DNA of 64,000 nt from Vulcanimicrobiota bacterium (GCA_050250895.1 JBFWNU010000004.1:686934-750933); one strand, 5' to 3'; counted from the stretch's first letter, positions 14,956-62,175 are shown. Program-made: numbers and translations. The notes: generated by a model not told the origin, from the sequence alone.

Positions 14956-16488
14956 CTATAGGAAGGCAGGCTTCTTGTTCATGAACGTAGCCAGACCGTT
15001 CCAGCCAAACGACGGCACGCCGAAGCCCTGAGGATTCTGGCCCGGCTCGGCCAGGGGATGAAAATACTCGTAGAAATCGGCCCGGTCGAGCGCCTCGAAA
15101 GTGGAGCTGCGAATCTTCTCGGACATGGCCCGGGCCAGCACATTATCGGGATTGCTCTTGAGGTGCTGCTCAAGACCGCAGCGGGTGAAAAAGTTGACGA
15201 TGACCCAGATATTGCCGCGCCAGTAGTGGTCGTTGGGATTCTCGAGCATCTGCGTGGGCACGCTGGGATCGTCGAGCGAGGTCGTGGGCACGCTATACCC
15301 GTCGGGCGGATTGAACTCGCCGGGATTGAGCAAATGGTTGGCAATCAGGCTGGTCCCATGGGGCTCGCCCTCGAGCAGCATGGGATAGAACATGGCGGCG
15401 CTCTTGACCGGCGACTTGCGCTCGCCGATGAGGTCGCAATACTTGTCGCCATCCCACATCTTCTCGAAGATGGCAGCTTTGACTTCGTCGGCCCGCTGCT
15501 GATAGTGGTCGGCCCGGTCGGGCTGGTCGGCGGCTTGATACAACCGCGCCAGACACTCGAGATTCTTGGCGTAGAGAGCGTTGAAATCGACCGGTTTGAC
15601 GGCGAAGTCGCCGCTCTCGAAGATCTTGTCGAGGTCCCAGTCCAGGGCCTTATACTTGCAAAACAGACCCATCTTACGCACATCGATCTGGCTGCGCTCG
15701 ATGGGAGCCTCGGGCCGCCCCAGGCCGATGGTCTCGTCCCAACGCTGGCTATTGTCCCAGCCGCTCTCCCAGGGATGGATGATGCGGACCAGGCCGTCCT
15801 CGTCGGCCCGCCGGTCGTGAAGATAATCATAGTAGGCCGAAAGCTTCGGCAGCATTTCTCCGAGAAAGGCCTGGTCGTCGGTAGCAGCCTGCAACTCGAG
15901 AGCGGCCATGGCCAGGATCGGAGGCTGGGTGATATCAGAGTGCACCGGGCTCGACCAGTAGCCCTGACAGAATTCAGCGCGCTCGCTCTCGGGCACCAAC
16001 CGGCGACCGTCGGGCGAGTCGAGAAAACGCTGGTAATGCGGCTGGGCCCAGGTCGGCACCCGGCTGCCGTCGCCGTGGAAGTAGTTCATGTGGGGCACGA
16101 AGCCCAAGTCTTTCGAGGCGGGGTCGCGATTCTGGTTGGCGAAAACGGCGCGCAGCTCGGACTGAGCCACCTCGGGCTCGGTCCAGGCTAGATTCATGAC
16201 GTGAGCGGCCGAGTCCCAGAGCCATTGCTTGCCACCATAGTCGAGGCGCGAATCTTGAGCGCCGTCGCAGCGACTGGGAGTGGTGAAGGTATGCTCGGCG
16301 CCGGCGGGGTCGACGACCTTGACCCGATTACCGCTGAGAATCTGATAGGCTTTGAGGGTCACGGCCATGTCGCGTTCGCGCTGGGCCGCTCCCAGCTCCA
16401 GCTGGTCTTTGGGTCCAGAACTGGTGGGACGGGTGGCTGACCGAACCACGGGACGTGACGGCAGGCCGGGGAGTGAAGTGATGAGCAT
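14956..16488 (-). CDS. GH63/MGH1-like (alpha/alpha)6 glycoside hydrolase with low-complexity N-terminal extension
   Basis: QWLWDS, GFVPH, ITQPP, IIHPWESGWDNS.RWD, YWRG.IW, F.EYF.P, FGW. RBS GAGGAGG. Confidence 0.88.
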   Translation of the reverse strand: MLITSLPGLPSRPVVRSATRPTSSGPKDQLELGAAQRERDMAVTLKAYQILSGNRVKVVDPAGAEHTFTTPSRCDGAQDSRLDYGGKQWLWDSAAHVMNLAWTEPEVAQSELRAVFANQNRDPASKDLGFVPHMNYFHGDGSRVPTWAQPHYQRFLDSPDGRRLVPESERAEFCQGYWSSPVHSDITQPPILAMAALELQAATDDQAFLGEMLPKLSAYYDYLHDRRADEDGLVRIIHPWESGWDNSQRWDETIGLGRPEAPIERSQIDVRKMGLFCKYKALDWDLDKIFESGDFAVKPVDFNALYAKNLECLARLYQAADQPDRADHYQQRADEVKAAIFEKMWDGDKYCDLIGERKSPVKSAAMFYPMLLEGEPHGTSLIANHLLNPGEFNPPDGYSVPTTSLDDPSVPTQMLENPNDHYWRGNIWVIVNFFTRCGLEQHLKSNPDNVLARAMSEKIRSSTFEALDRADFYEYFHPLAEPGQNPQGFGVPSFGWNGLATFMNKKPAFL

Positions 16489-16505
16489 GGGGCCTCCTCT
16501 CTTTC

Positions 16506-16537
16506 AAAGTAAGAGAAAGCCCTGAAAAATCGTTGAA
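16506..16537 (-). promoter_or_regulatory. Direct-repeat promoter TTCAA-n6-TTCAG-N10-TACTTT
   Basis: Read directly on the minus strand. Same geometry as at least 7 other promoters in the window. Confidence 0.65.
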
Positions 16538-16539
16538 GC

Positions 16540-17451
16540 CTACTCGCCCGCCAGCACGTAGCCGGCGGCGGCGCCCGCCACAGCGCCCAGCCCGCCCACG
16601 ATCAGAGCCATTTGCATCGTCACCGGACTGGCCAGCCGTAGAGGGTTGGCCAGCGCCGGAACCATCACCGCAAACGTTCCCAGGGCGCCACCGAGGCCGG
16701 CCCCGATCAGCATCGAGCCGAGCGGGTCGCTCTGCTCGCTCTGAACGGTTGCAGTGCGCAGCAGGCCCGAGGCCTGGCCGAAGTTGCGCCGGGCCGACTG
16801 CACCTGACGCTCGCTGTCACCGAGCTCGCGGTCCATGAAGCCAAGTTCGCGCTCGATGCCGCGCAGGCTGTTGCCCACCAGGATGCCGTCCATCGACACA
16901 TCCACCCCGGGTTGGTCCATCTGGATCTGGCGGATGTGCATATCGGCCATGCGGACCTCGCGTTCGATGTTGCGATTACCGTTGTCAAAGCGGCGCCAAC
17001 CAATCCCGAGCGAGTCGACGGCTTGCGAGCCCTCTTCGAGCTGGGTAGCCGCCTGGCGCACTCGACCCAGCCGCTCGTCGCCGGCGGCCTCGAGATCCCG
17101 CAAAAGATCGGTCATGCTCTGTTTGGCCAGATCGACGCCGCGGTCGAGTTGGCCGTATTCCACCTCGCCCCGGCGCATCTGCATGGCCGCCGAATCGAGC
17201 TGGCGCGAGCCGTTGTCGAACTGCCGGTCGAGCTGATAGCCGGCCCAGCTCGAGTCGGTGGCGCGAGTGTCACGCTGAGCCTGGCTCTGGGGCATCCACG
17301 CCTGATCGAAATCGCGCTCGGCCGAGGCCAGATAGCGTTCGGTCTGAGAGTGGGTCTGACTGACCCGGTCAAGAGACGTGTTCGAGCCGTCAAGCTGGGC
17401 GGCCAGGCGCGCCAGGCGAGCGGCGAAAGGATCGCTTGCTGAGATGACCAT
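16540..17451 (-). CDS. Hypothetical coiled-coil protein with internal duplication and C-terminal glycine-zipper hairpin
   Basis: Two D..xD(S/V)S..G repeats. C-terminal GAGLGGALG...GGLGAVAGAAAG. Confidence 0.8.
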   Translation of the reverse strand: MVISASDPFAARLARLAAQLDGSNTSLDRVSQTHSQTERYLASAERDFDQAWMPQSQAQRDTRATDSSWAGYQLDRQFDNGSRQLDSAAMQMRRGEVEYGQLDRGVDLAKQSMTDLLRDLEAAGDERLGRVRQAATQLEEGSQAVDSLGIGWRRFDNGNRNIEREVRMADMHIRQIQMDQPGVDVSMDGILVGNSLRGIERELGFMDRELGDSERQVQSARRNFGQASGLLRTATVQSEQSDPLGSMLIGAGLGGALGTFAVMVPALANPLRLASPVTMQMALIVGGLGAVAGAAAGYVLAGE

Positions 17452-17514
17452 GATCGCACCCTAGTCAAGCAGGCCTGGGCCAGGTGTTGCCGGCAGATGA
17501 ACGAACCAACGGGT

Positions 17515-17946: not shown

Positions 17947-17968
17947 CACCTGGAAGCCTTCCTCTGCG

Positions 17969-19764: not shown

Positions 19765-20385
19765 TTACCCTCCGTGCTTGAAATTGGCCAGTCCCGTGCT
19801 GGCCGCCAGCCAGGCGCCAACAGCAGCCACCACCTGGCTATCTCTAGCCAGGCAAAAGCGGGTAGAGAGGGCGTTGATCGATTCGCCGGGGTTTACCAGA
19901 TAGACCTGACTGCTTCCAGTGCTGCTGCCTCGAAACAGCTGCAGACTGGCCCGCGAGAAGTCTTGCTCGTGCACTCCCCAGGGCGATTTGCGATATTGGG
20001 TCAGTCGGCCCGGAGCCAACTCCCAACGCAACTCGGTGACTAGCTCGCGGACGGCCAGGCCCCATAGCAGCAAGCTAATCAGCAAGAAGAGAAAAGTGAC
20101 CAGGGCCGGGCTGACGAAAAAGCCGGCTCCGGCAGCGGTGCCCCCGATCATGAAAAGCACCGCCGACATGAAGGCGTGCGAACGGGGCTGGGTCAGAACC
20201 AAGCGACCATCCCGCCGCTCGAACGTATAATGACGCGTCAACTCCTCGGGCGGCTCTAACTCGGCCACCTCCTGGCCCCCCTCGACTACCGGCGCGGCCG
20301 TATGCAAGTCTGCCGAGCACTGATAACAATTCTGGTCAGATTGACGATTCTGACTGCCGCAACCCGGGCAACGCAAATATCTCAT
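19765..20385 (-). CDS. Zinc-ribbon membrane protein
   Basis: Start re-assigned to MRYLRCPGCG...CYQC. Two TM segments. The upstream extension in the ORF track is repeat-derived. Confidence 0.8.
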   Translation of the reverse strand: MRYLRCPGCGSQNRQSDQNCYQCSADLHTAAPVVEGGQEVAELEPPEELTRHYTFERRDGRLVLTQPRSHAFMSAVLFMIGGTAAGAGFFVSPALVTFLFLLISLLLWGLAVRELVTELRWELAPGRLTQYRKSPWGVHEQDFSRASLQLFRGSSTGSSQVYLVNPGESINALSTRFCLARDSQVVAAVGAWLAASTGLANFKHGG

Positions 20386-20454
20386 ATAGGAAAATTCCAG
20401 CCGGCAAGTCAAAACTCCTGGGCAACGATGGCGCGCTCGGTGGTCCCGGCCCGG

Positions 20455-22112
20455 CCGCCTTCGGCGGGGCGGGGCGAACCCAGACTTCCAGCTGGAGGAC
20501 CGGCCCACGGGGCAGCGGCCTGGCCAGCTCCGCACGGAACACGAGCGGTCGCGAGCGCCCGGTAGCCGGGGCGAGGGGAGCACGGCCGCCTTCGGCGGGG
20601 CGGGGCGAACCCAGACTTCCAGCTGGAAGACCGGCCCGCGGGGCGGCGACCTGGTCACTTCCGCACGGAAGACGAGCGGTCGCGAGCGCCCGGCAGCCCG
20701 GGCCGGAGACGACCGCCTCGGGGGGGGCGGGGCGAACCCAGACTTCCAGTTGGAAGACCGGCCCGCGGGGCGGCGACCCGGCCAGCTCCGCACGGAACAC
20801 GAGCGGTCGCGAGCGCCCGGCAGCCGGGGCGAGGGGAGCACGACCGCCTTCGACGGGGCGATTCAACCCCCCAGACTTCCAGCTGGAAGACCGGCCCACG
20901 GGGCAGCGGCCTGGCCAACTCATCTGGCCACTTCCGCACGGAAGACGAGCGGTCGCGAGCCGAATCGCCCGGCCGCCCGGGCCGGAGCACGACCGCCTTC
21001 GACGGGGCGATTCAACCCCAGACTTCCAGCTGGAAGACCGGCCCACGGGGCAGCGACCTGGCCAACTCACGTGCCACTTCCGCACGGAAGACGAGCGGTC
21101 GCGAGCCGAATCGCCCGGCCGCCCTGGCCGGAGCACGACCGCCTCGGCGGGGTGGGGCGAACCCAGACCTCCAGCTGGAAGACCGGCCCACAGGGCAGCG
21201 ACCTGGCCAGCTCATCTGGCCACTTCCGCACGGAAGACGAGCGGTCGCGAGCGCCCGGCAGCCCGGGCCGGAGCACGTCCGCCTCGGCGGGGTGGGGCAA
21301 CCCAGACTTCCAGCTGGAAGACCGGCCCCCGGCGCGGCGATCTGGCCAGCTCACCTGGCCACTTCCGCACGGAAGACGAGCGGTCGCGAGCGCCCCGCAG
21401 CCCGGGCCGGAGCACGACCGCCTCGGCGGGGTGGGGCGAACCCAGACTTCCAGTTGGAAGACCGGCCCGCGGGGCGGCGATCTGGCCACTTCCGCACGGA
21501 AGACGAGCGGTCGCGAGCGCCCGGCAGCCCGGGCCGAGGGGAGCACGACCGCCTCGGCGGGGTGGGGCGAACCCAGACTTCCAGTTGGAAGACCGGCCCG
21601 CGGGGCGGCGACCCGGCCAGCTCCGCACGGAACACGAGCGGTCGCGAGCGCCCGGCAGCCGGGGCGAGGGGAGCACGACCGCCTTCGACGGGGCGATTCA
21701 ACCCCCCAGACTTCCAGCTGGAAGACCGGCCCACGGGGCAGCGGCCTGGCCAACTCATCTGGCCACTTCCGCACGGAAGACGAGCGGTCGCGAGCGCCCG
21801 GTAGCCGGGGCGAGGGGAGCACGGCCGCCTTCGGCGGGGTGGGGCAACCCAGACTTCCAGCTGGAAGACCGGCCCCCGGCGCGGCGATCTGGCCAGCTCA
21901 CCTGGCCACTTCCGCACGGAAGACGAGCGGTCGCGAGCGCCCCGCAGCCCGGGCCGGAGCACGACCGCCTCGGCGGGGCGGGGCGAACCCAGACTTCCAG
22001 CTGGAAGACCGGCCCGCGGGGCAGCGTGGCCACCTCACCTGGCCACTTCCGCACGGACGACGAGCGGTCGCGAGCGCCCGGCCGCCTGGGCCGGAGCACG
22101 TCCGCCTCGGCG
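20455..22112. repeat. Tandem mosaic repeat array, 12 units of ~127-147 bp (BIME/REP-like), non-coding
   Basis: CCCAGACTTCCAGCTGGAAGACCGGCCC core at ~20479, 20610, 20737, 20870, 21017, 21162, 21301, 21441, 21572, 21705, 21848, 21988. Each is followed by an (A)CTTCCGCACGGAAGACGAGCGGTCGCGAGC-type core. Confidence 0.95.
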
Positions 22113-22205
22113 CCTCGGCGCCCTTTGCGGTTAGCCCATCGAGCTCAAACCGACCGGCTACGACAAGCGATCCAGAGGCGCTCACCCCCAGCGCACCGGA
22201 TTGCC

Positions 22206-23171
22206 TCAGGTGAACTTCGAGAGGTAGTTGTAGCCGAAGTGACTGCCCGTGTCGTCGATGACGGTCATGTTGGGGTTGTCGGTGAAGATATCGTGGGTGA
22301 GAAACTCTTTGCCCAGCAGCTTGCGCGGCTCGAGGCCAAGTTGGGGGGCGGTTCGCGACAGCGACTTCCAGACCAGTTCGGCGCAGCCGAAGCCGTCGTC
22401 GCTGCCCTCGCCGCGCAGTTTGTACATCAGGTCGAAGCCTTTGCCCACATGAGTGCGGGCCTCGGCCACGGCGGCCTGAGCTTGCTCCTGGTCGCGATAG
22501 GCCGGGCGTAAAATCTTGACGTGCTCGTTCTCGCCCATCACTATGGCGGCGGGGCGCTCGATCACGCCACATTCAATCAGGCTGTCCACGGCCTGACCGT
22601 CACCGGCATAGAGGCCGACATGGACCCAGGAAGGGTTCGAGCCGGTCAGGCCGCCCATCACCTCGAGGTCGAGCCAGGTGTCCGAGTTGGTCACGATGAC
22701 ATCACCCGGTTCCATCTTGTCGAGCATCTGCTGCACACGCTCGGCGCTGGGGCGGGGGTGCGAAGTGTAACTGGGATCCCAGAGCTTCTTGGGCAGCGAG
22801 CCGAGGGTGAAGCCTTTCGTCTCGTCCTGCATTCGGGGCGAGAAGACATCGAGGCCGAGGCCGTCCATGGCCGCGCCCAGGCCGGTGCCGACCACCCCTC
22901 CGACCATTCCCCCCACCATCCGGCCAACCGGGAAAACGCCCTCGAAACGGCGGCTCTTGAACTCGACATAGACCCCGGTGGCAAAGCCCGCCACCGCGCC
23001 CGCCACTTTGGCTGCCGGCCCAAAACTGTCGCACAGTTCGGCTCCGAGCTTGGCCGTCACGAAGGGTACGGCCAGACGTGTGACCAGCGAACCGGTAGCT
23101 GCACCAAGACTGCCCATCGCCTTGCGATTGACGTGGCGGGCCGGAGAAGAGGCCTGATTCTGGATTCTCAT
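22206..23171 (-). CDS. Permuted papain-like amidase (YiiX/YebB, NlpC/P60 superfamily) with N-terminal glycine-zipper extension
   Basis: PGDVIV, WVHVGLY.G, ILRP, H.GK.FD, CAELVW. Start re-assigned to MRIQNQ. Confidence 0.85.
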   Translation of the reverse strand: MRIQNQASSPARHVNRKAMGSLGAATGSLVTRLAVPFVTAKLGAELCDSFGPAAKVAGAVAGFATGVYVEFKSRRFEGVFPVGRMVGGMVGGVVGTGLGAAMDGLGLDVFSPRMQDETKGFTLGSLPKKLWDPSYTSHPRPSAERVQQMLDKMEPGDVIVTNSDTWLDLEVMGGLTGSNPSWVHVGLYAGDGQAVDSLIECGVIERPAAIVMGENEHVKILRPAYRDQEQAQAAVAEARTHVGKGFDLMYKLRGEGSDDGFGCAELVWKSLSRTAPQLGLEPRKLLGKEFLTHDIFTDNPNMTVIDDTGSHFGYNYLSKFT

Positions 23172-23178
23172 GAGATCC

Positions 23179-23210
23179 AGTTTAGGGGTCGCGACTGAAA
23201 AGTATCTGAA
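23179..23210 (-). promoter_or_regulatory. Direct-repeat promoter TTCAG-n6-TTCAG-N10-TAAACT-N7-ATG (leaderless)
   Basis: Perfect 11-bp-period repeat inside the 3' end of the upstream gene. Confidence 0.7.
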
Positions 23211-24796: not shown

Positions 24797-25947
24797 AGCT
24801 TGAGGACCTTCTAGACGAGGCCCGGGGGGCGGGCCGAATCGACTCGTCGGGCAGTTTCACCGTCGACCTGCAGGCGGCGATTTCCAAGCTCCGCTCATAC
24901 CAGGTCGAGAACCCTTATCACTACGTCAACCGCCTGATTCGCACCGCCTATCTCGTCGGCAGCCCCTGCGTGGATGTGGCCAGCAAAGCCGCCCGCACCC
25001 GCGTTCACTTTCCTCTGGCCGCCATCGACCCGGCGCAGCTAGAACAACTGCTCGAGCAAATGTTCCAGGCTCAGAATCCCGCCGCCAAAGCTCTGGCCGA
25101 CGCCACCAATCTAGCCCTCGGGCTTGAGGATGAACGGGTGGAACTGAGCCTCGACAATGGCGAACGAGCTCGCTTGATGGTGGTCGACCACGGTCAGGTC
25201 GAGGTTTACGAGATCCGTCCCGAAGGTATGGGCACCACCTTCCAGTTGCGACGCTCGACGGGCTCCAAGCTAGCGACTCTGGCCACCAACTCGCCTGAGT
25301 ATATAGCCGTGGTGCGCCGCTTTCGCTATAGTCCGCTCGCGATCAGCATCAATGGTCAGAGTCCGCCTCGGGAAGTGGGTTGGGGGGCACCCCCCAAGAA
25401 AAACGGGCCCAAGTTTTTCGTGCGAGCCGGCTTCTTCAAGTCCCACCGCCTTTGCGTTGAGCATCATGCGGTCGAGGTGCGATACTACAGCGAAGACGAG
25501 GCCGGCAACGGGCTCGGACTACTGCCTTCTACGGCCACGGGGCTGGCCCGGCTCGGTCCTCAGTCGAGCGGCGAGCTCGATCGCTGTCAACTTGCCATTG
25601 GTCTGGCCATCGACCCGGCCCAACCTTCTACCATCGCCTGGGTCTATTGTGGCGAGACCCTTCAGACCTTTCCGGTGGAGCTGCCGGCTCCAGGACTGCA
25701 ACTATTGGTGTCGGCCAGCGATCTCAATCTGGATCTGACCGGAGAGAAGCTGGTGCAAGACGAGACCTTTCGAGACCGATGGGACTTCGCCAAGACCAGG
25801 GCTCGCGAACTGGTCGAGGCTCTGCGACGAGCCTATCCCGATACACGCGAGCGCAACCTGGCCAGGCAAGCGTTTCTTGACGAACAAGTGCGTTGGCGCC
25901 CTTTCCTCGAGGCCGACTTCCAGAGTTTTTTAAGCGACTCCGGCTAG
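24793..25947 (+). CDS. Hypothetical protein with degenerate GHKL-like domain (paralog of 9068..10228); probable ATA start
   Basis: Frame is open upstream of GTG 24970, giving IELEDLLDEARGAG.IDS.G.FTVD...KL..YQ...PYHY, which aligns with the paralog's N-terminus. Confidence 0.75.
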   Translation: MELEDLLDEARGAGRIDSSGSFTVDLQAAISKLRSYQVENPYHYVNRLIRTAYLVGSPCVDVASKAARTRVHFPLAAIDPAQLEQLLEQMFQAQNPAAKALADATNLALGLEDERVELSLDNGERARLMVVDHGQVEVYEIRPEGMGTTFQLRRSTGSKLATLATNSPEYIAVVRRFRYSPLAISINGQSPPREVGWGAPPKKNGPKFFVRAGFFKSHRLCVEHHAVEVRYYSEDEAGNGLGLLPSTATGLARLGPQSSGELDRCQLAIGLAIDPAQPSTIAWVYCGETLQTFPVELPAPGLQLLVSASDLNLDLTGEKLVQDETFRDRWDFAKTRARELVEALRRAYPDTRERNLARQAFLDEQVRWRPFLEADFQSFLSDSG

Positions 25948-25950
25948 TCT
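25919..25950 (+). promoter_or_regulatory. Direct-repeat promoter TCCAG-n6-TTAAG-N10-TAGTCT-N7-ATG (leaderless)
   Basis: Read directly; shared geometry. Confidence 0.65.
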
Positions 25951-25957
25951 CTTCCCT

Positions 25958-28900
25958 ATGCAGGTAGGGAATCTCACTTCATCCATCGTCTCCGTACGCC
26001 GAGCCGCCGCTAACGCCAGCAGCGACGGCCTGGCGGCCTCTGAAGAAGCCGCCTTTTCGACCTTTCTCGAGTATGGGGAAGGTCTCGACAGCCTCTCGCG
26101 CCCCGAGTATGCTCGCAGCCTGGCCTGGCTTTCTCGGCAGCAGCTCGACGCCGGCAAGCCTTTTGCTACCTATCAGGGTCTGGTCGAAGGCAAGCTCGAG
26201 ACCGTCGAAGTCAAGTATCACGACCTCGTCGTGGGCAAGTTCGTGCCCGACTTGCTGGCCAAGCCCGAGAGTCTCGAGAAGATGCTCAAACCCGTGGCCA
26301 CCAGTCTGGCCAGACTCGACGCTGCCAGCGCCAAAGCTCTGGCCGGCGAGCACGCGACGAGCCTGGTGGAACGGGCCAACTATCTAGCCGGACTGTGTCA
26401 GCGCCTGCCTTCGGCCAGCGCCCAGGCTCTTTACCAGGCGGTAGCCGCCCAACCCGACTGGTCGCAGGCGACCGGGTTCGGGACCGCTCTCCTTGACGCT
26501 CGTCCCGATGCCCCCGGCACCGAATGGGCCAAAGCCTTCGCGCATCAGGCCGAATTGGCCAAATGGCCGGGCAATCTGCAAGCGGCCGCCCAGGCTCTCT
26601 ATCTGAAGACCTTCGCCGCCACCGGCCAGGCCGACAAGGCCAATCAAGAAATGGCCCGCTGGCAACCTGCCCTGACCAGCCTGGCCCGGCCCGAGTTGGC
26701 AACGAGCCTGGTAGGATTGGCCGGCTCGGGTCTGGAGCCGGCCCGGGTGACCGAGACCCTGCAAGCCCTTAGTCCCTCAGGGCAAGACGCTCGTGTGATC
26801 GACTTCGAGAGGCTCAACGCCGGCCTTCAAGACGGCACGGCCAGCTGGAGCTTATTGGAAAAGCTCGAAACTCGGCCCCGCAACTGGGTCAAGTCAGCGC
26901 CCGACGCCGTGGCTCTGGCCACTCAGCTTTGTCCCGACGCCCAGGAGCGCTGGCAACTGGCCGCCCGCATTCTCGAATCGAACTCGGCCAAATGGTTGGG
27001 CGAGCTCGTTGGCCAGCCCAGCCAGTTGTTCGAAGCTCAACAGCCCTGGGCCTATGCCCGCACGGCCGCCGGCCTCGGCTGGACCGAGAGTCCCAACGGC
27101 AACTATGCTCCCAACCTGAACACCAGTTTGACGACTCCAGCCATCGACCTGGCCGGACTCCAGTCGCCGCGGGTCGAGCTGCGCTACCAGTGCGCGACCG
27201 AGGCCGGCTCGGATCGATGCCACCTGGAAGTGGCCGGAGAAGATGGCCAGTGGAAGTCACTGGGCTCCATGACCGGCAAGGTCTCGAACGGCTTTCAAGA
27301 GACCGAACTGTCCGAGTTCAAAGACCAGAAGGTCCGTCTGCGCCTACGCTTTAGCAGCGACAGCTCGAATCAGGGCGACGGGTTTCTGCTCGAGCATATG
27401 GCGGTTTCGGGCCGAACCGAGCAGGGCCAGTCCGTTCCGTTCTGGTATTCGGCCGGGCCTCGCGAGACGGCCGATGTGCTCGACCGTTACGCCAGCCTGG
27501 GCGCCAGCCAGCGGACCGACTATCTGGCCGGCCTCAAAAGGCTGATGGAGAGCGTCGAACGGCCCGAAGCCGCTCTGGCTCTCAGTGGAGCCGTGACCGG
27601 CAACCCTGGTGACCCCGGCTATGTCGACGAGTGCGGGAGGCTGGGTCAACTGGCCCGGCTGACCGACCTTTCGCCCGCCATCGAGCTGTGGCCAGGCCTG
27701 CACGACCGCCCTTCGGCCGACCTGGCTCGCCTGGGCTCGCTGTGCCGGCGGGCCTGGAGCGACCAACCCTCGCGAGAGGCGGGTCTGCAACGCCTGGCCC
27801 TGGCCAATCTGACCAGCGGGCAACTCGAGCGCCTCGAGCGGCTGGCCGATTCTACCGACGCCTTGCTCGCTGGATGGACGGTGCCGGTGGGCAGCTGGGG
27901 CTGGGAGCGCGATCCTGACCACGGACTGGTGCTGGCCGACAGCCCCGGAGGCAACTACGGCAACAATCAGGACCTCGCGCTGGTCTCGCCCGAGTTGACC
28001 ATTCCGGCCGAACTGCCTCGCCTGTCCTTCGAACGAGCTTACGTGATTGAAAATGGCGGCGACAAGGTCCACCTGGAGTTCTGTCCCGTGGGCGGAGAAT
28101 GGAGTCCGCTTCGCACCTACACCGGCAAGTCCGACTGGCAGCAGGAGAGCTTGAACCTGGCCAGCCTGGCCGGACGCAAAGGACGCCTTCGTCTGCGCCT
28201 GACCACCGATTCCAGCAACGTTTATGACGGCATCAAGCTCGCGGGACTGCGCTTGACCGGGGCCCACGACGAGCGCCCCATCGAAATGCCCTCGGGCGGA
28301 GTCAGCCTGGGCGAAGTGCTTGATTCCGTGAGTCGCACCAAGCCCGAGGCCCGAGAAGAGCTGCTGGCCAAACTCGAATTGCTGACGCCGCTGGCCGGCG
28401 AAGTGGGCCTGGCCATGCGGGTGATGGAGAGCGGTGGTGACTCGGAAACAGTGGCCATGGCCCGCCGTTTCGGCAGCCAGACCGCCCTGGAACTGAGCCG
28501 AGAATTTCCGGGGTTGTCCGAGCGCTCGGCTCGGCTGGCCGAGCGTCTTCACCGCTGCCTGGGCGAGCGGCCCGAACCGACCTATTGGGGCGAGACCGCC
28601 CGTCAGCTCGACGCCCATCCCGAATGGCTCGAACCGCTCGAGGAGCTGGTCGGTCCCGAGCCGGCCGCGGCCAACCTTCACAGCGGTTGGGGATTGGAGC
28701 GCGCCCCTGAGCTGGGGCTCGTATGGAGCGACAGTCCCGGGCGCAACTACGCCGACAACACCGACAACAGCCTGGAGTTGGAGCCACTCTCGTTGTGGGG
28801 GAAAAGCCAGGGCAAGCTGTCGTTTGAACTCACCAGCGCTCTCGAGAAAGACGGCGACAAGCTGCTGGTCGAGGCGGCCACCCACGGGGGCGCCTGGAGC

Positions 28901-29749
28901 ACCCTCGAGAAGTTCACCGGCAACCAGCCCTGGCAACGACACACCGTCGACTTGTCTCCCTTTGACGGGCAGAAGTTTCGACTGCGCTTTCGCCTGGTCA
29001 GCGACAGCAGCAAGAACTTCGACGGAGTCAAGCTCAATCGCATTCGGGTCGAGGCCCAGGACAGCCGGGGCAATCCCGAGCGCCTTTTCAACTTCGAGCC
29101 CGGCTCGCCGCACATGGTCGACTTGTTGGACGCCCTGCGAGCTGACCGCGGCCTCAAGAACAGCGCCGCCCATCTCGAGGTGCTCAGAGGGATCAGCGCC
29201 GACCTGGGAGGCTTTAGCCAGGCCGTGAGCTTGTGGCCGGTGGTCGAGAAGAGTCTGGAACATCCCCAGGGCGAAGCCGCCTTGACGGCCGTGCAAAAGC
29301 TGGCCCAGCGAGCCGGTGTGGCCATGACCAGTCAGTTGGCCCCGGCCGTGCTCTCGCAGCCCCAGATTACTCCGGAGATGAGCGAGCGCCTGGGCAATCT
29401 CGGCGAAGCCGCCCAGGGGTTGGGGCTCGAATCCAGTTTACTGCAGTGGCTGGCCGGCCGCGTGTTGCTCGAGCCCGACACGGCCAAACTCAAAGGGTTG
29501 CTGAGCAACCTTGGTCACGACCAGGCCACCGAGATCCTCACCGCCTTGCAAGCCAAAGCCAGGGTCCTGGAGGGAAGGGTGACCCTGGCCGAGGCCCTGG
29601 GGCGGCTGGCCGTGCTGCGCCTGGCCTCGGAGAACAGCACCACCGCTCAACTGCTAGATTCCCTCTTCGCCGAACTTTCCCGCACCGACTTCGAGCGGGG
29701 CGAAGACTGGCTGCAGGTGGGCGATCAGGTGGTACCGGTGCGCGAGTGA
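25958..29749 (+). CDS. 1263-aa protein with three beta-sandwich repeats (immune inhibitor A / MAM / cleaved-adhesin-like) separated by helical regions; conserved C-terminal motif
   Basis: Three copies of (D/E)SP.xNY..N....L...E.xxD...E......W..L...TG...L..x.xxK.RLRxR..xDSS...DG. Ends EDWLQVGDQVVPVRE. Confidence 0.85.
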   Translation: MQVGNLTSSIVSVRRAAANASSDGLAASEEAAFSTFLEYGEGLDSLSRPEYARSLAWLSRQQLDAGKPFATYQGLVEGKLETVEVKYHDLVVGKFVPDLLAKPESLEKMLKPVATSLARLDAASAKALAGEHATSLVERANYLAGLCQRLPSASAQALYQAVAAQPDWSQATGFGTALLDARPDAPGTEWAKAFAHQAELAKWPGNLQAAAQALYLKTFAATGQADKANQEMARWQPALTSLARPELATSLVGLAGSGLEPARVTETLQALSPSGQDARVIDFERLNAGLQDGTASWSLLEKLETRPRNWVKSAPDAVALATQLCPDAQERWQLAARILESNSAKWLGELVGQPSQLFEAQQPWAYARTAAGLGWTESPNGNYAPNLNTSLTTPAIDLAGLQSPRVELRYQCATEAGSDRCHLEVAGEDGQWKSLGSMTGKVSNGFQETELSEFKDQKVRLRLRFSSDSSNQGDGFLLEHMAVSGRTEQGQSVPFWYSAGPRETADVLDRYASLGASQRTDYLAGLKRLMESVERPEAALALSGAVTGNPGDPGYVDECGRLGQLARLTDLSPAIELWPGLHDRPSADLARLGSLCRRAWSDQPSREAGLQRLALANLTSGQLERLERLADSTDALLAGWTVPVGSWGWERDPDHGLVLADSPGGNYGNNQDLALVSPELTIPAELPRLSFERAYVIENGGDKVHLEFCPVGGEWSPLRTYTGKSDWQQESLNLASLAGRKGRLRLRLTTDSSNVYDGIKLAGLRLTGAHDERPIEMPSGGVSLGEVLDSVSRTKPEAREELLAKLELLTPLAGEVGLAMRVMESGGDSETVAMARRFGSQTALELSREFPGLSERSARLAERLHRCLGERPEPTYWGETARQLDAHPEWLEPLEELVGPEPAAANLHSGWGLERAPELGLVWSDSPGRNYADNTDNSLELEPLSLWGKSQGKLSFELTSALEKDGDKLLVEAATHGGAWSTLEKFTGNQPWQRHTVDLSPFDGQKFRLRFRLVSDSSKNFDGVKLNRIRVEAQDSRGNPERLFNFEPGSPHMVDLLDALRADRGLKNSAAHLEVLRGISADLGGFSQAVSLWPVVEKSLEHPQGEAALTAVQKLAQRAGVAMTSQLAPAVLSQPQITPEMSERLGNLGEAAQGLGLESSLLQWLAGRVLLEPDTAKLKGLLSNLGHDQATEILTALQAKARVLEGRVTLAEALGRLAVLRLASENSTTAQLLDSLFAELSRTDFERGEDWLQVGDQVVPVRE

Positions 29750-33683: not shown

Positions 33684-34933
33684 AGAGCCAGGGCCGAGCG
33701 GTCGATCTGGTCGAGGCTAGCACAGCCGGCCAGGGCCATGGTGAGTTCGAAGTCAGCCTGGAAGTTCTCGAGCAGTTCGCGCACCCCGGCCTCGCCGGCC
33801 ACCGCCAGGGCATAGACGAAGGGGCGGCCCAATCCCACGGCCGTTGCCCCCAGCGCCAACGCTTTGAAGATGTCGGCTCCCCCTCGGATGCCGCTGTCGA
33901 AAAAGATGGGCACCCGACCGTCGACGGCGCTGGCCACTTCGGCCAGCGCCATCAGCGAAGCCAGAGCCCCGTCGACCTGGCGACCGCCGTGATTGGAAAC
34001 ATAAATGCCGTCAACTCCGACCTCCAGCGCCTGGCGGGCGTCGTCGGCGGCCAGAATGCCTTTGAGCACCAGCGGTAGTCGGGTCATCTCACGCAGCCTC
34101 GACAGGTCGTCCCAATTGAGACTGGCTCGGGTATAGATCTCGATGAACTTTCGCACCGCGCGCAAGGCCCTTCGCGAGCGCAGATTGTCGAGCAGGCCGC
34201 CGGGAAGGCGGTGGCTCTGTTGCACCAGCAAGGCCAGGCTCGAGAGGGTGATGGGACCGGCCGGAGGCTCGGCCTCGCTGTCCTCGACCAGAGCCTGAAA
34301 GACCGGGTCCGAGGTATATTGGGCGATTCCTTTACCTTGCAAGAAAGGCAGGCTGGCCCGGTCCAGATCGCGCACCCTCCAGCCCAGCATGGTGGTGTCG
34401 AGCGTCACCACGATGGCGCTGCAACCACAGTTCTCGGCTCGGGCCACGAGGCTCTTGATCAGCTCGTCGGATTGGCTGGGATAAAGCTGAAACCAGCGCG
34501 GACAGCCCATCAAAGCGGCGCACTCTTCCATCGGAGTCGATGCCTGGTTGGAGAAGATCATGGGAATCCCCAGGCCGGCCGCTGCTCGCGCTGCGGCTCG
34601 ATCAGCCTGGCGATGGGCCAGTTCCAGCACGCCCACCGGCGCCAGAAAGAACGGCGCGGGAACGGTTCCGCCAAAGACCTGGCGGCGCATATTTCGGCGG
34701 GACACATCCCGCAGCATGCGGGGCACGATGGCCACCTGCTCGAAGGCCCTTCGGTTGGCGGCCATGGTGGTCTCGAGGCCGGCCCCCCCGGCCACGTAGC
34801 TGTAGCCCGTGTCGCCCATGGCCCGGGCGGCCAGGCGCTCGAGAGCCCCGAGGTCAGTGGGCACGCTCGGGCGAAACCCTTTAGAACCTTCCACATAAAG
34901 GTGGCGCTGACGCGAGGGTGCGGGAGTCTTCAT
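33680..34933 (-). CDS. FMN-dependent alpha-hydroxy acid oxidase, lactate 2-monooxygenase-like
   Basis: YVAGGAG, WFQLY, VTLDT, LKGI, VSNHGGRQ.D, DSGIR.G.D..KALALGA. Confidence 0.95.
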   Translation of the reverse strand: MKTPAPSRQRHLYVEGSKGFRPSVPTDLGALERLAARAMGDTGYSYVAGGAGLETTMAANRRAFEQVAIVPRMLRDVSRRNMRRQVFGGTVPAPFFLAPVGVLELAHRQADRAAARAAAGLGIPMIFSNQASTPMEECAALMGCPRWFQLYPSQSDELIKSLVARAENCGCSAIVVTLDTTMLGWRVRDLDRASLPFLQGKGIAQYTSDPVFQALVEDSEAEPPAGPITLSSLALLVQQSHRLPGGLLDNLRSRRALRAVRKFIEIYTRASLNWDDLSRLREMTRLPLVLKGILAADDARQALEVGVDGIYVSNHGGRQVDGALASLMALAEVASAVDGRVPIFFDSGIRGGADIFKALALGATAVGLGRPFVYALAVAGEAGVRELLENFQADFELTMALAGCASLDQIDRSALAL

Positions 34934-39730: not shown

Positions 39731-39764
39731 AGCTCGAGCCTAAACGAGGATCGTTAAAGATCCA

Positions 39765-40487
39765 TTACACGCCCCATTGCTTCCACGGCTGGCTCTGAGC
39801 GTGGGCCATGATCTTGGGTGGATACGATGACCCGCCATTGTAGCGCTTGAGAGCAGCCTCCCAAGAACCGGTCTTGTCATAGAGGCTCTTGAGCAGGTTG
39901 GCGCCGTAGTCGATGTTCTTGACCGGGTCCCACACCTCGTTGGTGCGAGCAAACTGGTGGAAGCGGTCGTCAATTTGCATGATGCCTTTGCCGTGCTGGC
40001 CGTCAAAGGACTTGGCGTCGGCCCGCCAACCGCTCTCCTGGTAAGCTACGGCTTTGAGGATGTTAGGCGGAATGCCATATTTGGAGGCGGCCGCGTCGAG
40101 CATCTGACCGACCTGCTGCTTGTTGGGATTGGGGCCAAAGCTCGGGATCGTGGCGTTAGGGTTGGCCGCCGCCGCGCCCTGGGTAGCACCGCCACCGCCA
40201 CCGCCAGAGCCCAGGAAGTTATTGGCTGCGTTGTTCATTCCGAAGGCTGGAGAGCCGACTCCGCCGCCCCCGCCGCCAAAGCCGGGACTCTGGCCGGGCG
40301 AAAACATTCCGTTGCCCTCGCCACCCATCAGTCGGCCCAAGAGGCCGCCGGTCAATAGGCCCATCAGCAGGCCCATGACCATCCCGAGGATGTTCTGGAT
40401 GCCGCCGAAGAGTCCCCCGAATATACCACCCGCGCCCTGGGCCCCGAAGAGACCGCCGCCGGGATTGTTGCCACCGATGAAGTTCAT
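39765..40487 (-). CDS. Lytic transglycosylase (SLT domain) with Gly-rich N-terminal region
   Basis: LKAVAYQESG, GIMQI, NI.YGA..L, AL..YNG. RBS GGAGG. Confidence 0.92.
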   Translation of the reverse strand: MNFIGGNNPGGGLFGAQGAGGIFGGLFGGIQNILGMVMGLLMGLLTGGLLGRLMGGEGNGMFSPGQSPGFGGGGGGVGSPAFGMNNAANNFLGSGGGGGGATQGAAAANPNATIPSFGPNPNKQQVGQMLDAAASKYGIPPNILKAVAYQESGWRADAKSFDGQHGKGIMQIDDRFHQFARTNEVWDPVKNIDYGANLLKSLYDKTGSWEAALKRYNGGSSYPPKIMAHAQSQPWKQWGV

Positions 40488-44982: not shown

Positions 44983-45354
44983 TTAAGCCATTCCTCCGGC
45001 AATCGCTCCGAAGACACCGCCGGCTACAGCCCCGGTGACCCCGCCAGTGATAGCCCCGGCCAGAGGGCCGATAACGGCTCCGGCCACACCACCGATCAGG
45101 ACATCGGCGATCTTGTTGCCGGTCAGCTCGTGGCGAGAACCCCACAGCAAGCCGCCGACGAGGCCGACGGGTTCACCAATGACGCCGCCGATCTGAGCGC
45201 CGATCAAGCCGAAAGTGGCTGCCCCGGCGCAGCAGCCGGCCAGAGCGCCATCTCCGCTGGTCAGGGTCACCCGGTCCTGCCCGGCCATTTGAGGCGCCGC
45301 TGGACGCGAATTGGGACGAGCGTAGTTAGGTTGAGAGAAGCTTCCGATTTTCAA
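44983..45354 (-). CDS. Small glycine-zipper protein with polar N-terminal leader
   Basis: TTG start after ACGGAG. MKIGSFSQ...GQDRVTLTSG followed by long GxxxG repeats. Confidence 0.75.
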   Translation of the reverse strand: MKIGSFSQPNYARPNSRPAAPQMAGQDRVTLTSGDGALAGCCAGAATFGLIGAQIGGVIGEPVGLVGGLLWGSRHELTGNKIADVLIGGVAGAVIGPLAGAITGGVTGAVAGGVFGAIAGGMA

Positions 45355-53683: not shown

Positions 53684-54097
53684 GTGCTACCGCAACGACG
53701 TTCACGGCAGGGCTTCACCCTCATCGAATTGATGATTGCCATCGGCATTATCGCCATGCTCGCGGCCATCCTGGTCCCGAACTTCATCCGGGCCAAATCC
53801 AACTCGCAGCTGACCGCCTGCAAATCGAATCTTAAGAACATCGCCACCGCCGTGGAGGTCTATTCGACCGAGAACGGTGCTCGATTTCCCCTGGGCCTGA
53901 ACAATCTGACCCCGAACTTCTTGAAGACCATCCCCACCTGCCCGGCCATCGCCTCCAACAGCTACGAGGCCAGTTACGTCTCGCACTCGGTGCCCGACAT
54001 CTACACCGTGATGTGCGAGGGTAACAATCACCTCACGCTCCAGATTCCAGCCAACTATCCGCAGTGGAGTTCGGTTCAGGGCCTGATTGAGCGATAG
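53684..54097 (+). CDS. Type IV pilin / GspG-like prepilin
   Basis: QG|FTLIELMIAIGIIAMLAAILVPNF. Confidence 0.93.
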   Translation: MLPQRRSRQGFTLIELMIAIGIIAMLAAILVPNFIRAKSNSQLTACKSNLKNIATAVEVYSTENGARFPLGLNNLTPNFLKTIPTCPAIASNSYEASYVSHSVPDIYTVMCEGNNHLTLQIPANYPQWSSVQGLIER

Positions 54098-56268: not shown

Positions 56269-56269
56269 A

Positions 56270-58202: not shown

Positions 58203-58239
58203 TAGAGGAACCTCGCGCCGCGCCGGAAAGAGGCTGGCT

Positions 58240-59883: not shown

Positions 59884-59952
59884 TTTACAACCTGGCAACA
59901 ATTTTCGGCCCGTTCCGAGGCTGTACGAACAGGCCGGCTCTAGGATGTGACG

Positions 59953-62175
59953 ATGAGCATTCTAGGACGTGTCAAAGATAAGCTGAACGAAACAGTCCAC
60001 CGGGTGGAACGAAAGACCAGACCGGTGACCGAGACGGTCAAAGAGGTGGTGCGCAAACGCCCCTCGCTGCCGACCCTGGTCGGGGCCCGCGAAGGCGCCC
60101 GGCAACTCGACAGCGGCTGGCGAGCCTTGACCGGCAAGACCCGCCCTCGTAGCCAGGCTCGAAAAGAGCCGACGGTGCTGCGCTCCGAGCCGGCGCAGCA
60201 GCCCGAGCCGAGAGGTTGGCGCGACCGACTGCGCAGCTCGGCCAGCGACCAATGGAACGGCCTCAAGTCGGGGGCCGCCGACCTGTTAGATCAGGGCAAA
60301 GACAAGTTGCACGACCTCGACCGAACCGCCTTTCATCTGGCCGCCAAGCCCATGGGGGTCGACCTTCATACCGACCGTGGGCTCTTTCAAGAGCTGTTGG
60401 CCGAGCATCCCGACGGCGGCACCAACTGGTCCTGGGGTATCGAGCAGGTCTTCGACGGCATGACCGACGCCCTCGATCGCAGCGGTCAGCAGCGAATGGA
60501 CAGCAACAACCGGGGCTACGACTGGCTCGAGCGCCAGGCCAGCCGGGTCGGCCTGGACGGAGCCGTTCGCTTCGTCGAACGCCAGCATGATAACACTATC
60601 GGAGGCACCAGCAACGCTCTCGAGGGCGTGGTCGGTGGTTTCAAACCGCTGGTGGCGCACCCCATGACCACCCTTTCTCCTGCTTTAACCGTGCAGGAAC
60701 TGGTCACCAACCCTAAAGCCAGCGCCGAACTGCTGGTGAACACCGTGAGCGGGCAAGAGCTCTCGCCCCACCAACAGCAGCAACTCGACGACTTGAACCT
60801 GATCAAGAATTTGGCCAGTGACGCTGGCACGTTGACTCAACTGGCTACCACCCCCGAGGGCGGTCTGTTGCTAGCCTCGGAGGTGCTCGACCGGCCCCTG
60901 ACCAGTCGCCAACAGCATCAGAAAGACGTCTTCTTGCGTTACACTGAGGACTACAAGCAAAGCTATGACGAGTATGGGGTGGCTGGTCTCATCAGTCATG
61001 TGGGCACCGAACTGAGCCTCGAGGTCCTGACCGAGACCGCTACCGGAGGCGGCGGCCTGACCACCCGGGTCGGTCGCGAGGCGGCCGAAGAGGTCGCCGA
61101 AGAGGCCGTCGGAGAGGCCGTCGAACAGACCGCTCGCCGAGGCGCTCGCGAGGTGGTCGACGCCCCCGTGAACCACCGCCTGGTTGACGGGCGCATGGGG
61201 GTGGTGGATGCGCCTGAGGGTGACATTTCCTTCGTCCACCGCGTCAGCGGGCCGGCCGGTGACCCTTCCGAACTGCTCGAAGGCGAGAAATATCTGCTGG
61301 GCCACAGCAACGGCCGGGGAGATTTCATCAGCCATCGCAACCTGCTTGGCTATGACGCTGAGGGCAAGCCCATCTGGGGACATGTCGACGCCCCCACGCC
61401 GCGCCTGCCCAGCCAGCCGGGAGTGGGCTGGCGCAACCGACTCGACTCGCTCCACCCCGGCCAGCGTCGCCGGGCCAGGGCGGCGGCGGAGCGCGACAAT
61501 CTTGGCCTCGAGCAAGAGTTGGCTGGCCGGGGCGAAGCCATCGACGGTGAAGGCCTGCGAGCGATCAGTGACAACTTCAACCAGCGAATGCCTCCCCAAC
61601 GGCTCCGCGTCGGCTCGCAAGAGATCCCGGTCCAAGGCCTGCGCGGCCTGCGCGAGCGGCGGGCGCTGCAGCGAGAACTCGAGCATCTGCGCCAGCAGGG
61701 GGGTGACGGCGTGTTGCGTCAATTCCACGAGGTCATCGTCACCGACCACCCCGGCGTCTTCAATTTCCAACGCTTCGAAAATGGAACCCCGGTGGCCGAC
61801 ATCCTGGGCCGCCCGGTCACGGATCCGGGTCGTCCCGGAGGATTTCACCTCGACAACTTCGATGGCGGCGGTCGAACCCTGTTCATCCACCGCCCTCGGG
61901 TGGGCGACGGAGAGACTCTTTTCCATGAGGTCGGCCACGCCGTCGACTTCAACAACGGCCAACTCAGCCGCCGTTCGAACGCGTTCGGACAGGGGGGGCT
62001 GGCCGACGCTGCTTCGGAATATGGCCTCAACAATGCGGCTGAAGACTTCGCCGAGATCTTCCGGGTGGTGGTCTCGGACCCCGACCAGGCAGCCCGCTGG
62101 ATCGCCGAGAACCCCGGCGGGCTACGTGCCCAGAAGGTACGCGAGGTCCGGCAAGCCCTGGACTGGCTACTCTGA
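59953..62175 (+). CDS. Polymorphic-toxin-like protein with C-terminal zincin (HExxH) metallopeptidase domain
   Basis: LFHEVGHAVD...SEYG..N..EDFAE.F. TETATGGGG pre-toxin-like linker. Confidence 0.75.
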   Translation: MSILGRVKDKLNETVHRVERKTRPVTETVKEVVRKRPSLPTLVGAREGARQLDSGWRALTGKTRPRSQARKEPTVLRSEPAQQPEPRGWRDRLRSSASDQWNGLKSGAADLLDQGKDKLHDLDRTAFHLAAKPMGVDLHTDRGLFQELLAEHPDGGTNWSWGIEQVFDGMTDALDRSGQQRMDSNNRGYDWLERQASRVGLDGAVRFVERQHDNTIGGTSNALEGVVGGFKPLVAHPMTTLSPALTVQELVTNPKASAELLVNTVSGQELSPHQQQQLDDLNLIKNLASDAGTLTQLATTPEGGLLLASEVLDRPLTSRQQHQKDVFLRYTEDYKQSYDEYGVAGLISHVGTELSLEVLTETATGGGGLTTRVGREAAEEVAEEAVGEAVEQTARRGAREVVDAPVNHRLVDGRMGVVDAPEGDISFVHRVSGPAGDPSELLEGEKYLLGHSNGRGDFISHRNLLGYDAEGKPIWGHVDAPTPRLPSQPGVGWRNRLDSLHPGQRRRARAAAERDNLGLEQELAGRGEAIDGEGLRAISDNFNQRMPPQRLRVGSQEIPVQGLRGLRERRALQRELEHLRQQGGDGVLRQFHEVIVTDHPGVFNFQRFENGTPVADILGRPVTDPGRPGGFHLDNFDGGGRTLFIHRPRVGDGETLFHEVGHAVDFNNGQLSRRSNAFGQGGLADAASEYGLNNAAEDFAEIFRVVVSDPDQAARWIAENPGGLRAQKVREVRQALDWLL

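Follow-up and report, generated by a model that had tools for sequence, protein, structure and literature searches.

The Cia proteins of Campylobacter, which are non-flagellar, are said to be exported through the flagellar type III system. Dependence on FliI/FlhB is described in PMC7688988 for three proteins of Lysobacter enzymogenes OH11, namely a protease, a glucanase and a HAD-family protein. FlgM is a substrate of the flagellar type III apparatus, which selects its substrates through a disordered peptide at the N-terminus (PMC3372961). For the effectors of Pseudomonas syringae, PMC3338616 gives as rules an aliphatic amino acid or a proline at position 3/4 and no acidic residue in the first 12. 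Here we compare with these systems, and with classical signal peptides, a conserved two-part N-terminal tag carried by many otherwise unrelated proteins of a Vulcanimicrobiota bacterium. The starting point was a 64,000-nucleotide stretch of its genome (GCA_050250895.1, JBFWNU010000004.1:686934-750933; hereafter the window, C4:686934-750933 in contig coordinates), in which an earlier note had read nine dispersed genes as putative secreted effectors with non-Sec N-terminal extensions.

The source genome comprises 9.5 Mb in 17 contigs (63% G+C, 99.6% complete), and a simple home-made gene call yielded 8,132 genes covering 89% of it. The tag recurs on unrelated proteins across this genome, stands in the place of Sec or lipoprotein signals among orthologues, and is accompanied in many genes by a leaderless tandem-box promoter. 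From these sequences we infer export, a candidate route and a possible predatory use, each with the strength discussed below.

Definition and frequency of the two-part tag

The earlier note had drawn attention to N-termini beginning M-x-(I/V) and, in three proteins, to an acidic D-x-x-x-(L/P) turn; this turn proved to belong to a conserved tag of two parts, of which it is the second. An initial listing contained 186 leaderless genes with isoleucine or valine at residue 3 and a non-hydrophobic N-terminus. The motif D.V.L[STG] was present at residues 10-70 in 52 of 1272 M-x-[IV] proteins compared with 49 of the remaining 6860 proteins (odds ratio 5.9, p 4e-17), with a positional peak at residues 25-35, and internal protein windows contained it in 26 of 5560 cases. 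A hidden Markov model (HMM; consensus MKIQPLTSAPAARPAAAPAAAPAPPQDQVELSG) was built from the M-x-[IV] proteins bearing this motif and searched against 44,837 candidate N-termini belonging to the 8,132 genes, with reversed sequences as decoys. The model matched 61 genes at >=15 bits (0 decoys), 113 at >=10 bits (1 decoy) and 141 at >=8 bits (4 decoys), and in the first search 54 of 60 matches began at residue 1-2. These 141 genes are referred to below as carriers.

The head of the tag reads M-[RKQ]-[IV]-polar-[PSA]-hydrophobic, where residue 6 is L, F or V and residue 3 is I in 107 carriers and V in 32. A Pro/Ala/Arg/Ser-rich spacer of fixed length leads to the second motif, P(-2)-x-D-[QRS]-V-[EST]-L-[SG], which is short and strand-like and has its D at median residue 28 (10-90% range 26-32). 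A variant, D-x-[YF]-x-P-[ST], was also seen by eye. Acidic residues within the first 12 positions occur in 11 of 141 carriers versus 4938 of the 8132 genes. When a matrix of residues 2-12 only was used, 258 genes scored >=4 bits versus 18 predicted from internal methionine contexts, and many paralogues of tagged proteins have the head only; given this score and these paralogues, carriers probably number near or above ~200. No Pfam family matched any of 41 tags at E up to 10, and an ESM Atlas search with one 72-aa tagged protein gave no usable match.

The double-glycine leader of PCAT-exported peptides was considered as an identity for the second motif and rejected: the residue after the motif L is S in 33 of 64 cases and G in 20 of 64, G occurs at +2 and at +3 in 10 of 64 each, and the carriers are large enzymes.

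Modularity and cargo

Once the tag is removed, the 141 carriers fall into 110 families, 93 of them singletons. Their genomic clustering is weak: 4 pairs of carriers are direct neighbours (2.5 expected), and 30 pairs lie no more than 10 genes apart (22.6 expected). In a Pfam and NCBIfam scan of 60 of the 141 carriers, we identified PAD-type deiminases (4), clostripain (2), PQQ/BamB-like propellers (2), PG_binding_1 and PG_binding_3 with SleB-like hydrolases (2 each), alpha/beta hydrolases, GHL10, alpha-amylase, GH68/32/43, InhA-MAM and M48, together with cytochrome P450 (2), a GGDEF cyclase, HD domains, PI3/PI4-kinase, ADP-PFK/GK, a PRK-type kinase and a lipid desaturase. Several of these families are usually extracytoplasmic yet have no hydrophobic signal here (PG_binding_1/3, SleB-like hydrolases, clostripain, GH68, PQQ propellers), and others are cytosol-type enzymes (P450, GGDEF, PI3/PI4-kinase, ADP-PFK, GT28). 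Overall, the cargo ranges from glycosidases, peptidoglycan hydrolases, proteases and lipases to Gly-zipper membrane proteins, and it includes enzymes that depend on cofactors of the cytosol, such as the glycosyltransferase, P450, the kinases and the GGDEF cyclase. No core housekeeping family was present among the 60 scanned carriers. The repertoire is, as the earlier note had supposed, large and dispersed, and its families are directed at peptidoglycan, glycans, lipids, proteins and membranes, a mix that fits delivery to or onto other cells. Behind the tag, a hydrophobic stretch is absent in 76 carriers, weak in 24 and strong in 41; the 41 strong stretches are Gly/Ala-rich and belong mostly to small proteins (median 180 aa).

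The tag in the place of signal peptides among orthologues

The key comparison was that of a GHL10/YddW-like enzyme (C3:568864-570339) and its 120 best homologues. Among the 37 closest (58-100% identity), 31 are tag-like, with head and motif in 18, head only in 7 and motif only in 6, and one has a signal peptide. Among the next 83 (50-60% identity), several of which bear the source names Myxococcales or Nannocystis, a signal peptide of the classical or lipoprotein type is present in 65 and the tag in 0. Tag and signal peptide alike stop shortly upstream of the conserved RELRGAW that marks the start of the mature GHL10 enzyme, and in the tagged group the motif D lies 8-30 residues ahead of it.

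Two families represented in the window were compared as well. For its glycoside hydrolase (GH), inspected by eye, distant homologues of ~400 aa begin at the catalytic domain itself, one group of nine or ten has lipoprotein-type signals, and the Eremiobacterota orthologues are tagged, including a Lys-rich form, M-D-K-I-N ... K-G-D-S-V-S-I-S, in which both motifs are kept and the spacer is altered. For the GT28 glycosyltransferase, the number of residues ahead of the S-x-G-G-H motif has a median of 45 in the closest homologues, where tag motifs are present, versus 10 in distant ones. The extensions are therefore lineage-specific, as the earlier note had anticipated, since the distant GH and GT28 homologues begin directly at the catalytic domain. 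The closest homologues of the window GH and of GHL10 carry the source names 'Candidatus Eremiobacteraeota' and 'Candidatus Xenobia'. A comparison with in-genome paralogues was uninformative because most paralogues scored as untagged bear a sub-threshold tag head; 16 of 158 are signal-peptide-like.

The tag thus resembles Sec and lipoprotein signal peptides in occupying the same N-terminal place just ahead of the mature enzyme, in being interchangeable with them among orthologues and in being followed by a hydrophobic stretch in some proteins. It differs from them in that 76 of 141 carriers have no hydrophobic core, which in a Sec or lipoprotein signal spans some 10 or more uncharged residues close to the N-terminus, and no twin-arginine motif or lipobox was seen in the tags by eye. 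Extended signal peptides of the ESPR type are a further point of comparison. A tag that is swapped for Sec or lipoprotein signals and is also added to cytosol-type enzymes is what would be expected if it directed proteins outside the cell or into a different one. The signal-peptide replacement is the best evidence that argues for export, and we consider that the tag is probably an export or targeting signal.

A leaderless tandem-box promoter

The promoter of many carriers has the form (G)TTCAG-N5-TTTCAG-N10-TAGnCT-N6-ATG, and the transcript is predicted to begin at the ATG. Its two TTTCAG-like boxes are 11 bp apart, and the proximal box lies 10 bp upstream of the -10 box. Across the genome, a TAnnnT box ends exactly 6 nt upstream of a candidate start in 606 cases, compared with 114-299 at the other spacings tried, which points to several hundred leaderless genes. 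A leaderless -10 box combined with a TTTCAG box precedes 33 of 141 tagged genes versus 139 of 7990 others, and most of those 139 also begin with M-x-[IV] and a polar stretch. The strict tandem-box pattern matched 67 sites versus 10 in reversed sequence, 61 of them within 300 nt upstream of a gene; 30 of the 61 encoded proteins have I or V at residue 3, compared with 1272 of the 8132 genes. Promoters of PhoB/OmpR-type activators have direct repeats with an 11-bp period replacing the -35 box, and the tagged-gene promoters resemble them in having two boxes 11 bp apart at 10 bp from the -10 box.

The arrangement was recognised by eye in one of four upstream regions of relatives, and TTTCAG-N9-11-TAnnnT-N5-7-ATG had 0 matches in 95 collected loci, which are mostly coding sequence only. 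The flgM promoter is of another kind, TAAGG-N15-TCGATAAT (C1:558732-559100), and conforms to what we take to be the sigma-28 consensus; with a textbook promoter of this type ahead of flgM, the flagellar class-3 promoter type is recognisable in the phylum. The leaderless tandem-box promoter offers a first handle on gene regulation there. Leaderless -10 boxes also occur in the window, for example at 17458-17463, 39737-39742 and 59941-59946.

Phyletic distribution

The tag model and FHIPEP (FlhA) were surveyed in 121 genomes of the phylum. The tag model matches 34 of them, concentrated in the class of the window genome (clades f1 13/15, f3 5/5 and g8 4/4), and it matches 0/10 genomes of g4 and 0/45 of f15; the model was built on GC-rich tags, and a Lys-rich variant may escape it. 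The sharpest contrast lies within a single family, between the genera g8 and g4. Judged from these genomes, the tag appears confined to a single class-level clade of Eremiobacterota. In this class, two full-length FlhA genes are the rule for most genomes, including those of 2.4 Mb, so that a second flagellar-type core set seems ancestral there. Many FHIPEP matches occur in large-genome relatives too.

No paper describing such a tag was found in our searches of the literature on Eremiobacterota secretion systems and on 'Eudoremicrobi'. The present analysis adds the second motif with its constant spacing, the decoy-controlled counts, the exchange of tag for signal peptide, the promoter, and the inventory of flagellar sets together with the lack of markers for a type VI secretion system (T6SS) sheath, VirB4 or an injectisome.

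Similarity to FlgM and the flagellar export machinery

The earlier note had likened the acidic turn to the D-x-V-x-L-S motif of FlgM. The likeness holds at the level of the motif for the FlgM proteins of the class, but kinship with FlgM is not significant. Nine FlgM proteins of the class, namely the one true FlgM of this genome (C1:558732-559016) and eight others, begin M-x-[IV] and continue with 35-45 polar residues and then x-V-x-[LV]-S, so that their N-terminal plan is that of the tag. An hhalign comparison placed the tag D-x-V-x-L-S in register with the FlgM S-x-V-x-L-S over 15 columns (probability 5%, P 0.0077). The tags differ from FlgM in having no C-terminal sigma-28-binding helices, in being fused to unrelated proteins, in having a conserved P-x-D ahead of V-x-L-S that is absent from FlgM, and in the promoter class of their genes. 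Searched against the genome, the Pfam FlgM model (PF04316) returned the one true FlgM and otherwise weak partial matches.

The tag fits the non-hydrophobic, disordered signal that type III substrates have in their first 20-30 residues, being P/S/T/A/R-rich with I or V at residue 3 and few acidic residues; there is some circularity in this likeness, since the head is what the HMM selects for. Of the three rules for P. syringae effectors in PMC3338616, two hold for the tag, which shares with the Hop effector signals the aliphatic residue 3, the acidic-poor first 12 positions and the polar, disordered N-terminus. Unlike those signals, it is far more sequence-conserved and has a second motif at fixed spacing, and no injectisome genes were found in its genome.

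As for the apparatus, which the earlier note had placed outside the window, the genome encodes two full flagellar export sets, each of them type III machinery, whereas no injectisome-type cluster was seen. Two full FHIPEP (FlhA) genes lie within these sets. Set 1 (C1:554-594 kb) contains flagellin, FlgM, FliA and L/P-ring genes, and set 2 (C1:1459-1476 kb) contains FlhAB, FliPQR, FliMN, FliFGHIJ, FlgBC and FliE; the genome totals are one flagellin and eight rod/hook proteins. Neither VipB (the T6SS sheath) nor VirB4 was found in this 99.6% complete genome. A predicted complex of the tag alignment with FlhA_C/FlhB_C of the second set scored 0.01 (mark 0.32) and gave no call either way.

The reading that we favour is a modular, non-hydrophobic N-terminal export signal, most likely for a flagellar-type type III gate. 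The tag would direct the unfolded protein to the export gate, with the head serving as signal and D-x-V-x-L-S providing a strand for docking. A flagellar-type gate appears the most likely one because the layout of the tag copies the N-terminal half of FlgM and the sole type III gear encoded consists of the two flagellar sets. Our confidence in this reading as a whole is evenly balanced; on the specific point of the flagellar route, we regard it as a plausible proposal that may well be wrong. Such a system would resemble those of Lysobacter OH11 and Campylobacter in co-opting flagellar export gear for enzymes or toxins against other cells. It would differ in scale, in that those cases involve a handful of substrates and no shared tag is described in the accessible text of PMC7688988, whereas this genome has >100 carriers with a promoter of their own.

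Eight further proteins match the C-terminal cytoplasmic half of FlhA only (C1:2008491-2009819, C1:2013805-2014935, C1:2473679-2476609, C1:1126937-1128199, C6:529281-530624, C7:117220-118743, C7:121829-122929 and C8:31611-33212). One of them, of 976 aa, starts FliF-like, two sit a few genes from tagged genes, and such paralogues could be docking platforms. Three lone YscJ/FliF-family genes lie outside the flagellar clusters (C2:555057-556562, C1:1835144-1835713 and C5:240420-241085), one of them encoding a 501-aa FliF-like paralogue. They were considered as part of a secretion system and rejected, as all three stand alone with no secretion cluster.

Alternative explanations and their bearing on the proposed route

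It could be argued that the tag is an artefact of miscalled starts or of a general bias towards AT-rich codons (K, I) after the start in a GC-rich genome. The gene caller was home-made, and isoleucine at residue 3 is mildly raised in ordinary Shine-Dalgarno-led genes (8.4% of 3504). Against this, only 0-4 matches arose among reversed decoys, the distance between the start and the second motif is fixed, a spacing of exactly 6 nt between the end of the -10 box and the start is far more frequent than the other spacings tried, and the amino-acid pattern is conserved across compositionally different orthologues, including the Lys-rich M-D-K-I-N ... G-D-S-V-x-I-S. G+C at the three codon positions of the 141 carriers is 0.68/0.61/0.70 in the tag, 0.69/0.46/0.79 in the gene bodies and 0.55/0.54/0.55 in the 90 nt upstream; a coding-type pattern in the tag beside a flat one upstream indicates that the tags are translated sequence. 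Leaderless or Shine-Dalgarno geometry, codon-position G+C and the decoys thus support the starts, and the objection that the extensions are start-codon miscalls, raised in the earlier note itself, was not upheld. The artefact explanation is largely refuted and very improbable, and the tag family is almost certainly real. A different possibility is that the tag is a cytoplasmic handle, such as a degron, a regulatory peptide for docking, or a tether to the pole or to the basal body of the flagellum; the tagged proteins would then remain in the cell or be inner-membrane proteins whose tag faces the cytoplasm. The P450, GGDEF, kinase and GT28 carriers are of cytosol type, 41 of 141 tags lie ahead of a transmembrane-like segment, and a shared promoter defines a regulon, not necessarily a secretome. 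This explanation is nevertheless improbable, as Sec or lipoprotein signals are replaced on extracytoplasmic enzymes (the GHL10/YddW-like family and the GH with lipoprotein-type orthologues), and PG-binding domains, SleB-like hydrolases, clostripain and GH68 would be without a cytoplasmic substrate. A purely cytoplasmic role is hard to reconcile with the swap and the cytosol-type cargo taken together.

Several findings weigh against the favoured reading. The tagged genes have a promoter class of their own, not the sigma-28 type, and no flagellar gene is among the strict box-promoter genes listed. Of the 121 genomes surveyed in the phylum, 117 have FHIPEP, including clades without a tag match (g4, f15), and because it is near-universal, its co-occurrence with the tag does not discriminate. 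The hhalign match to the FlgM profile is too weak for kinship to be demonstrable, and PF04316 matches 0 of 41 tags and 0 of 10 tagged GH orthologues. Besides the lack of an injectisome-type cluster, neither of the two secretins is near an FlhA locus. No recurrent chaperone-like family occurs among the 529 proteins encoded within two genes of tagged genes, where two-component proteins (14), Ser/Thr kinases (7) and GspF-like proteins (5) form the largest clusters; dedicated chaperone genes beside type III substrate genes are common, though not universal. The flagellar channel would have to pass proteins of up to 1,651 residues. Moreover, 41 of 141 tags precede a strongly hydrophobic segment, and the window protein at 38849-39730 shows an apparently normal signal peptide after its tag; in such proteins it could instead serve as a tail in the cytoplasm or as an extension ahead of a Sec signal. 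Alternatively, the tag may be an export signal for an undescribed non-type III pathway, either a new inner-membrane translocase or one of the many type IV filament-like machines of this genome, which resemble type II secretion (T2SS) or Tad systems, with the FlgM likeness being convergent. The signal-peptide swap gives export-type placement and names no route, the likeness to FlgM is not significant, the promoter is not flagellar, and FlhA is nearly everywhere in the phylum while matches to the tag model fall mainly in one class. GspF-like and GspE/PilT-like genes neighbour tagged genes, with a raw count of 5 GspF-like among the 529 neighbour proteins, and pseudopilin genes lie in the window (53732-54097 and 62167-64000). 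No candidate machine was found for such a pathway, and known T2SS and Tad systems draw their substrates from the periplasm, so that the tag would still need a route across the inner membrane. To our knowledge, every known non-hydrophobic N-terminal signal class of this kind is type III. We regard an undescribed pathway as unlikely, although it deserves serious consideration beside the favoured flagellar-type reading.

If the tag is an export signal, the exported arsenal of an uncultured phylum could be listed from genomes alone, sequence-readable sorting signals being rare and very useful, and the tag would be portable for laboratory testing. Were the route the flagellar-type gate, this would be by far the largest known flagellar export of non-flagellar cargo; were it otherwise, a new secretion pathway would still have to be found. 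More tentatively, and with the odds against it, we infer a delivery system of the clade's own, in which a two-part signal, a leaderless tandem-repeat regulon and ~150-250 cargo proteins would serve, via a flagellum-derived general exporter or an undescribed machine, against prokaryotic or eukaryotic cells. The effector repertoire of Legionella is comparable in scale. The tag also bears on the predatory lifestyle that has been proposed on other grounds for related large-genome marine Eremiobacterota (PMC9259500).

The nine genes of the window

All nine genes singled out in the earlier note were found where it had placed them, but they do not form one class. Three pass the tag HMM, at 27.8 bits for the Gly-zipper protein, 11.4 bits for the repeat protein and 10.7 bits for the GH. 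Four are partial or variant carriers (the coiled-coil protein, the C92 amidase, GT28 and the 'barrel' protein): they show no more than the head, the box promoter or both, or their second motif is of a variant form. Two, SLT and the possible zincin, are not members. Tagged genes are dispersed over the genome, and the window has no special enrichment. The domain labels are backed by Pfam for six of the nine, weakly for the Gly zipper, and no Pfam family matches the coiled-coil, 'barrel' or 'zincin' protein; features read in such Pfam-less proteins, a Gly-zipper hairpin after the coiled coil and an HEVGH motif in the zincin, were confirmed. The proposed starts are credible from -10 box or Shine-Dalgarno geometry. 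The Gly-zipper gene begins with TTG, not ATG. Five of the nine ATGs (coiled-coil, C92, repeat, 'barrel' and zincin) lie 6-7 nt past a TAnnnT -10 box, a leaderless geometry that GT28 shares with its ATG 7 nt past CATACT; the GH and SLT genes have Shine-Dalgarno sites.

The MGH1-like/GH63-like GH (14956-16488, minus strand; Pfam E 2e-59) has a tag of about residues 1-34, M-L-I-T-S-L-P ... P-K-D-Q-L-E-L-G, and a catalytic domain from about residue 87. Upstream lies a tandem-box promoter (16506-16537, minus strand) reading TTCAAC-N2-TTTTTCAG-N10-TACTTT, followed by a 17-nt leader with GAGGAGG. The adjacent coiled-coil protein with a C-terminal Gly-zipper hairpin (16540-17451, minus strand) scores below 8 bits in the tag HMM. 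Its tag is weak or partial, with the head M-V-I-S-A-S and S-L-D-R-V-S at residues 26-31, and the gene is leaderless with TAGGGT 6 nt upstream of the ATG. The C92 permuted-papain amidase (22206-23171, minus strand; Pfam E 8.5e-8) has the tag head only (M-R-I-Q-N-Q-A-S-S-P-A-R), then a hydrophobic Gly/Ala-rich region. It is a box-promoter gene, with the leaderless promoter TTTCAG-N10-TAAACT-N7-ATG (23172-23200, minus strand; pattern match 23169-23200, 0.01 expected by chance) and a further TTCAG copy 11 nt more upstream.

On the plus strand, a leaderless tandem-box promoter, TTCCAG-N5-TTTAAG-N10-TAGTCT-N7-ATG (25918-25957), precedes the repeat protein (25958-29749), which has 1263 aa, an InhA-like MAM domain (Pfam E 1.8e-13), the head M-Q-V-G-N-L-T-S-S and a degenerate second motif. 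The MGDG-synthase/GT28-type glycosyltransferase (34930-36174, minus strand; Pfam E 1.5e-19) has a 50-residue extension beginning M-R-I-V-A-N; its own second motif is degenerate, full tags are present in its orthologues, and its box promoter reads TTTAAG-N10-CATACT-N7-ATG. The 'barrel' protein (38849-39730, minus strand), of 293 aa and no known family, has its head (M-S-T-I-S-S) displaced by one residue and shows the variant second motif P-Q-D-L-Y-T-P-S, followed by a signal-peptide-like hydrophobic stretch ending in AHA at about residues 48-69; its promoter, at ~39731-39758, is TTTAAC-N10-TAGGCT-N6-ATG. The SLT lytic transglycosylase (39765-40487, minus strand; Pfam E 1.7e-18) has a hydrophobic Gly-rich N-terminus.

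The window's best tag, K-I-G-S-F ... G-Q-D-R-V-T-L-T-S, belongs to the 123-aa Gly-zipper membrane protein (44983-45354, minus strand), whose Pfam match is below the Pfam cut-off (E 0.0014). The possible zincin (59953-62175, plus strand) has 740 aa, its HEVGH motif near the C-terminus and a charged, helix-like N-terminus that is not a tag; the gene is leaderless, with TAGGAT 6 nt upstream of the ATG.

The prepilin/pseudopilin-type genes at 53732-54097 and 62167-64000 flank this region, with N-termini such as ...LIEILVIMAVIG.... The interval 20269-22205 (~1.9 kb) is without a confidently called gene, has long overlapping open reading frames on both strands, and falls in the 4-kb bin with the top G+C (0.686) and a strong AT skew (0.17). 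A tRNA gene at 9107-9177 is the sole Rfam match in the window.

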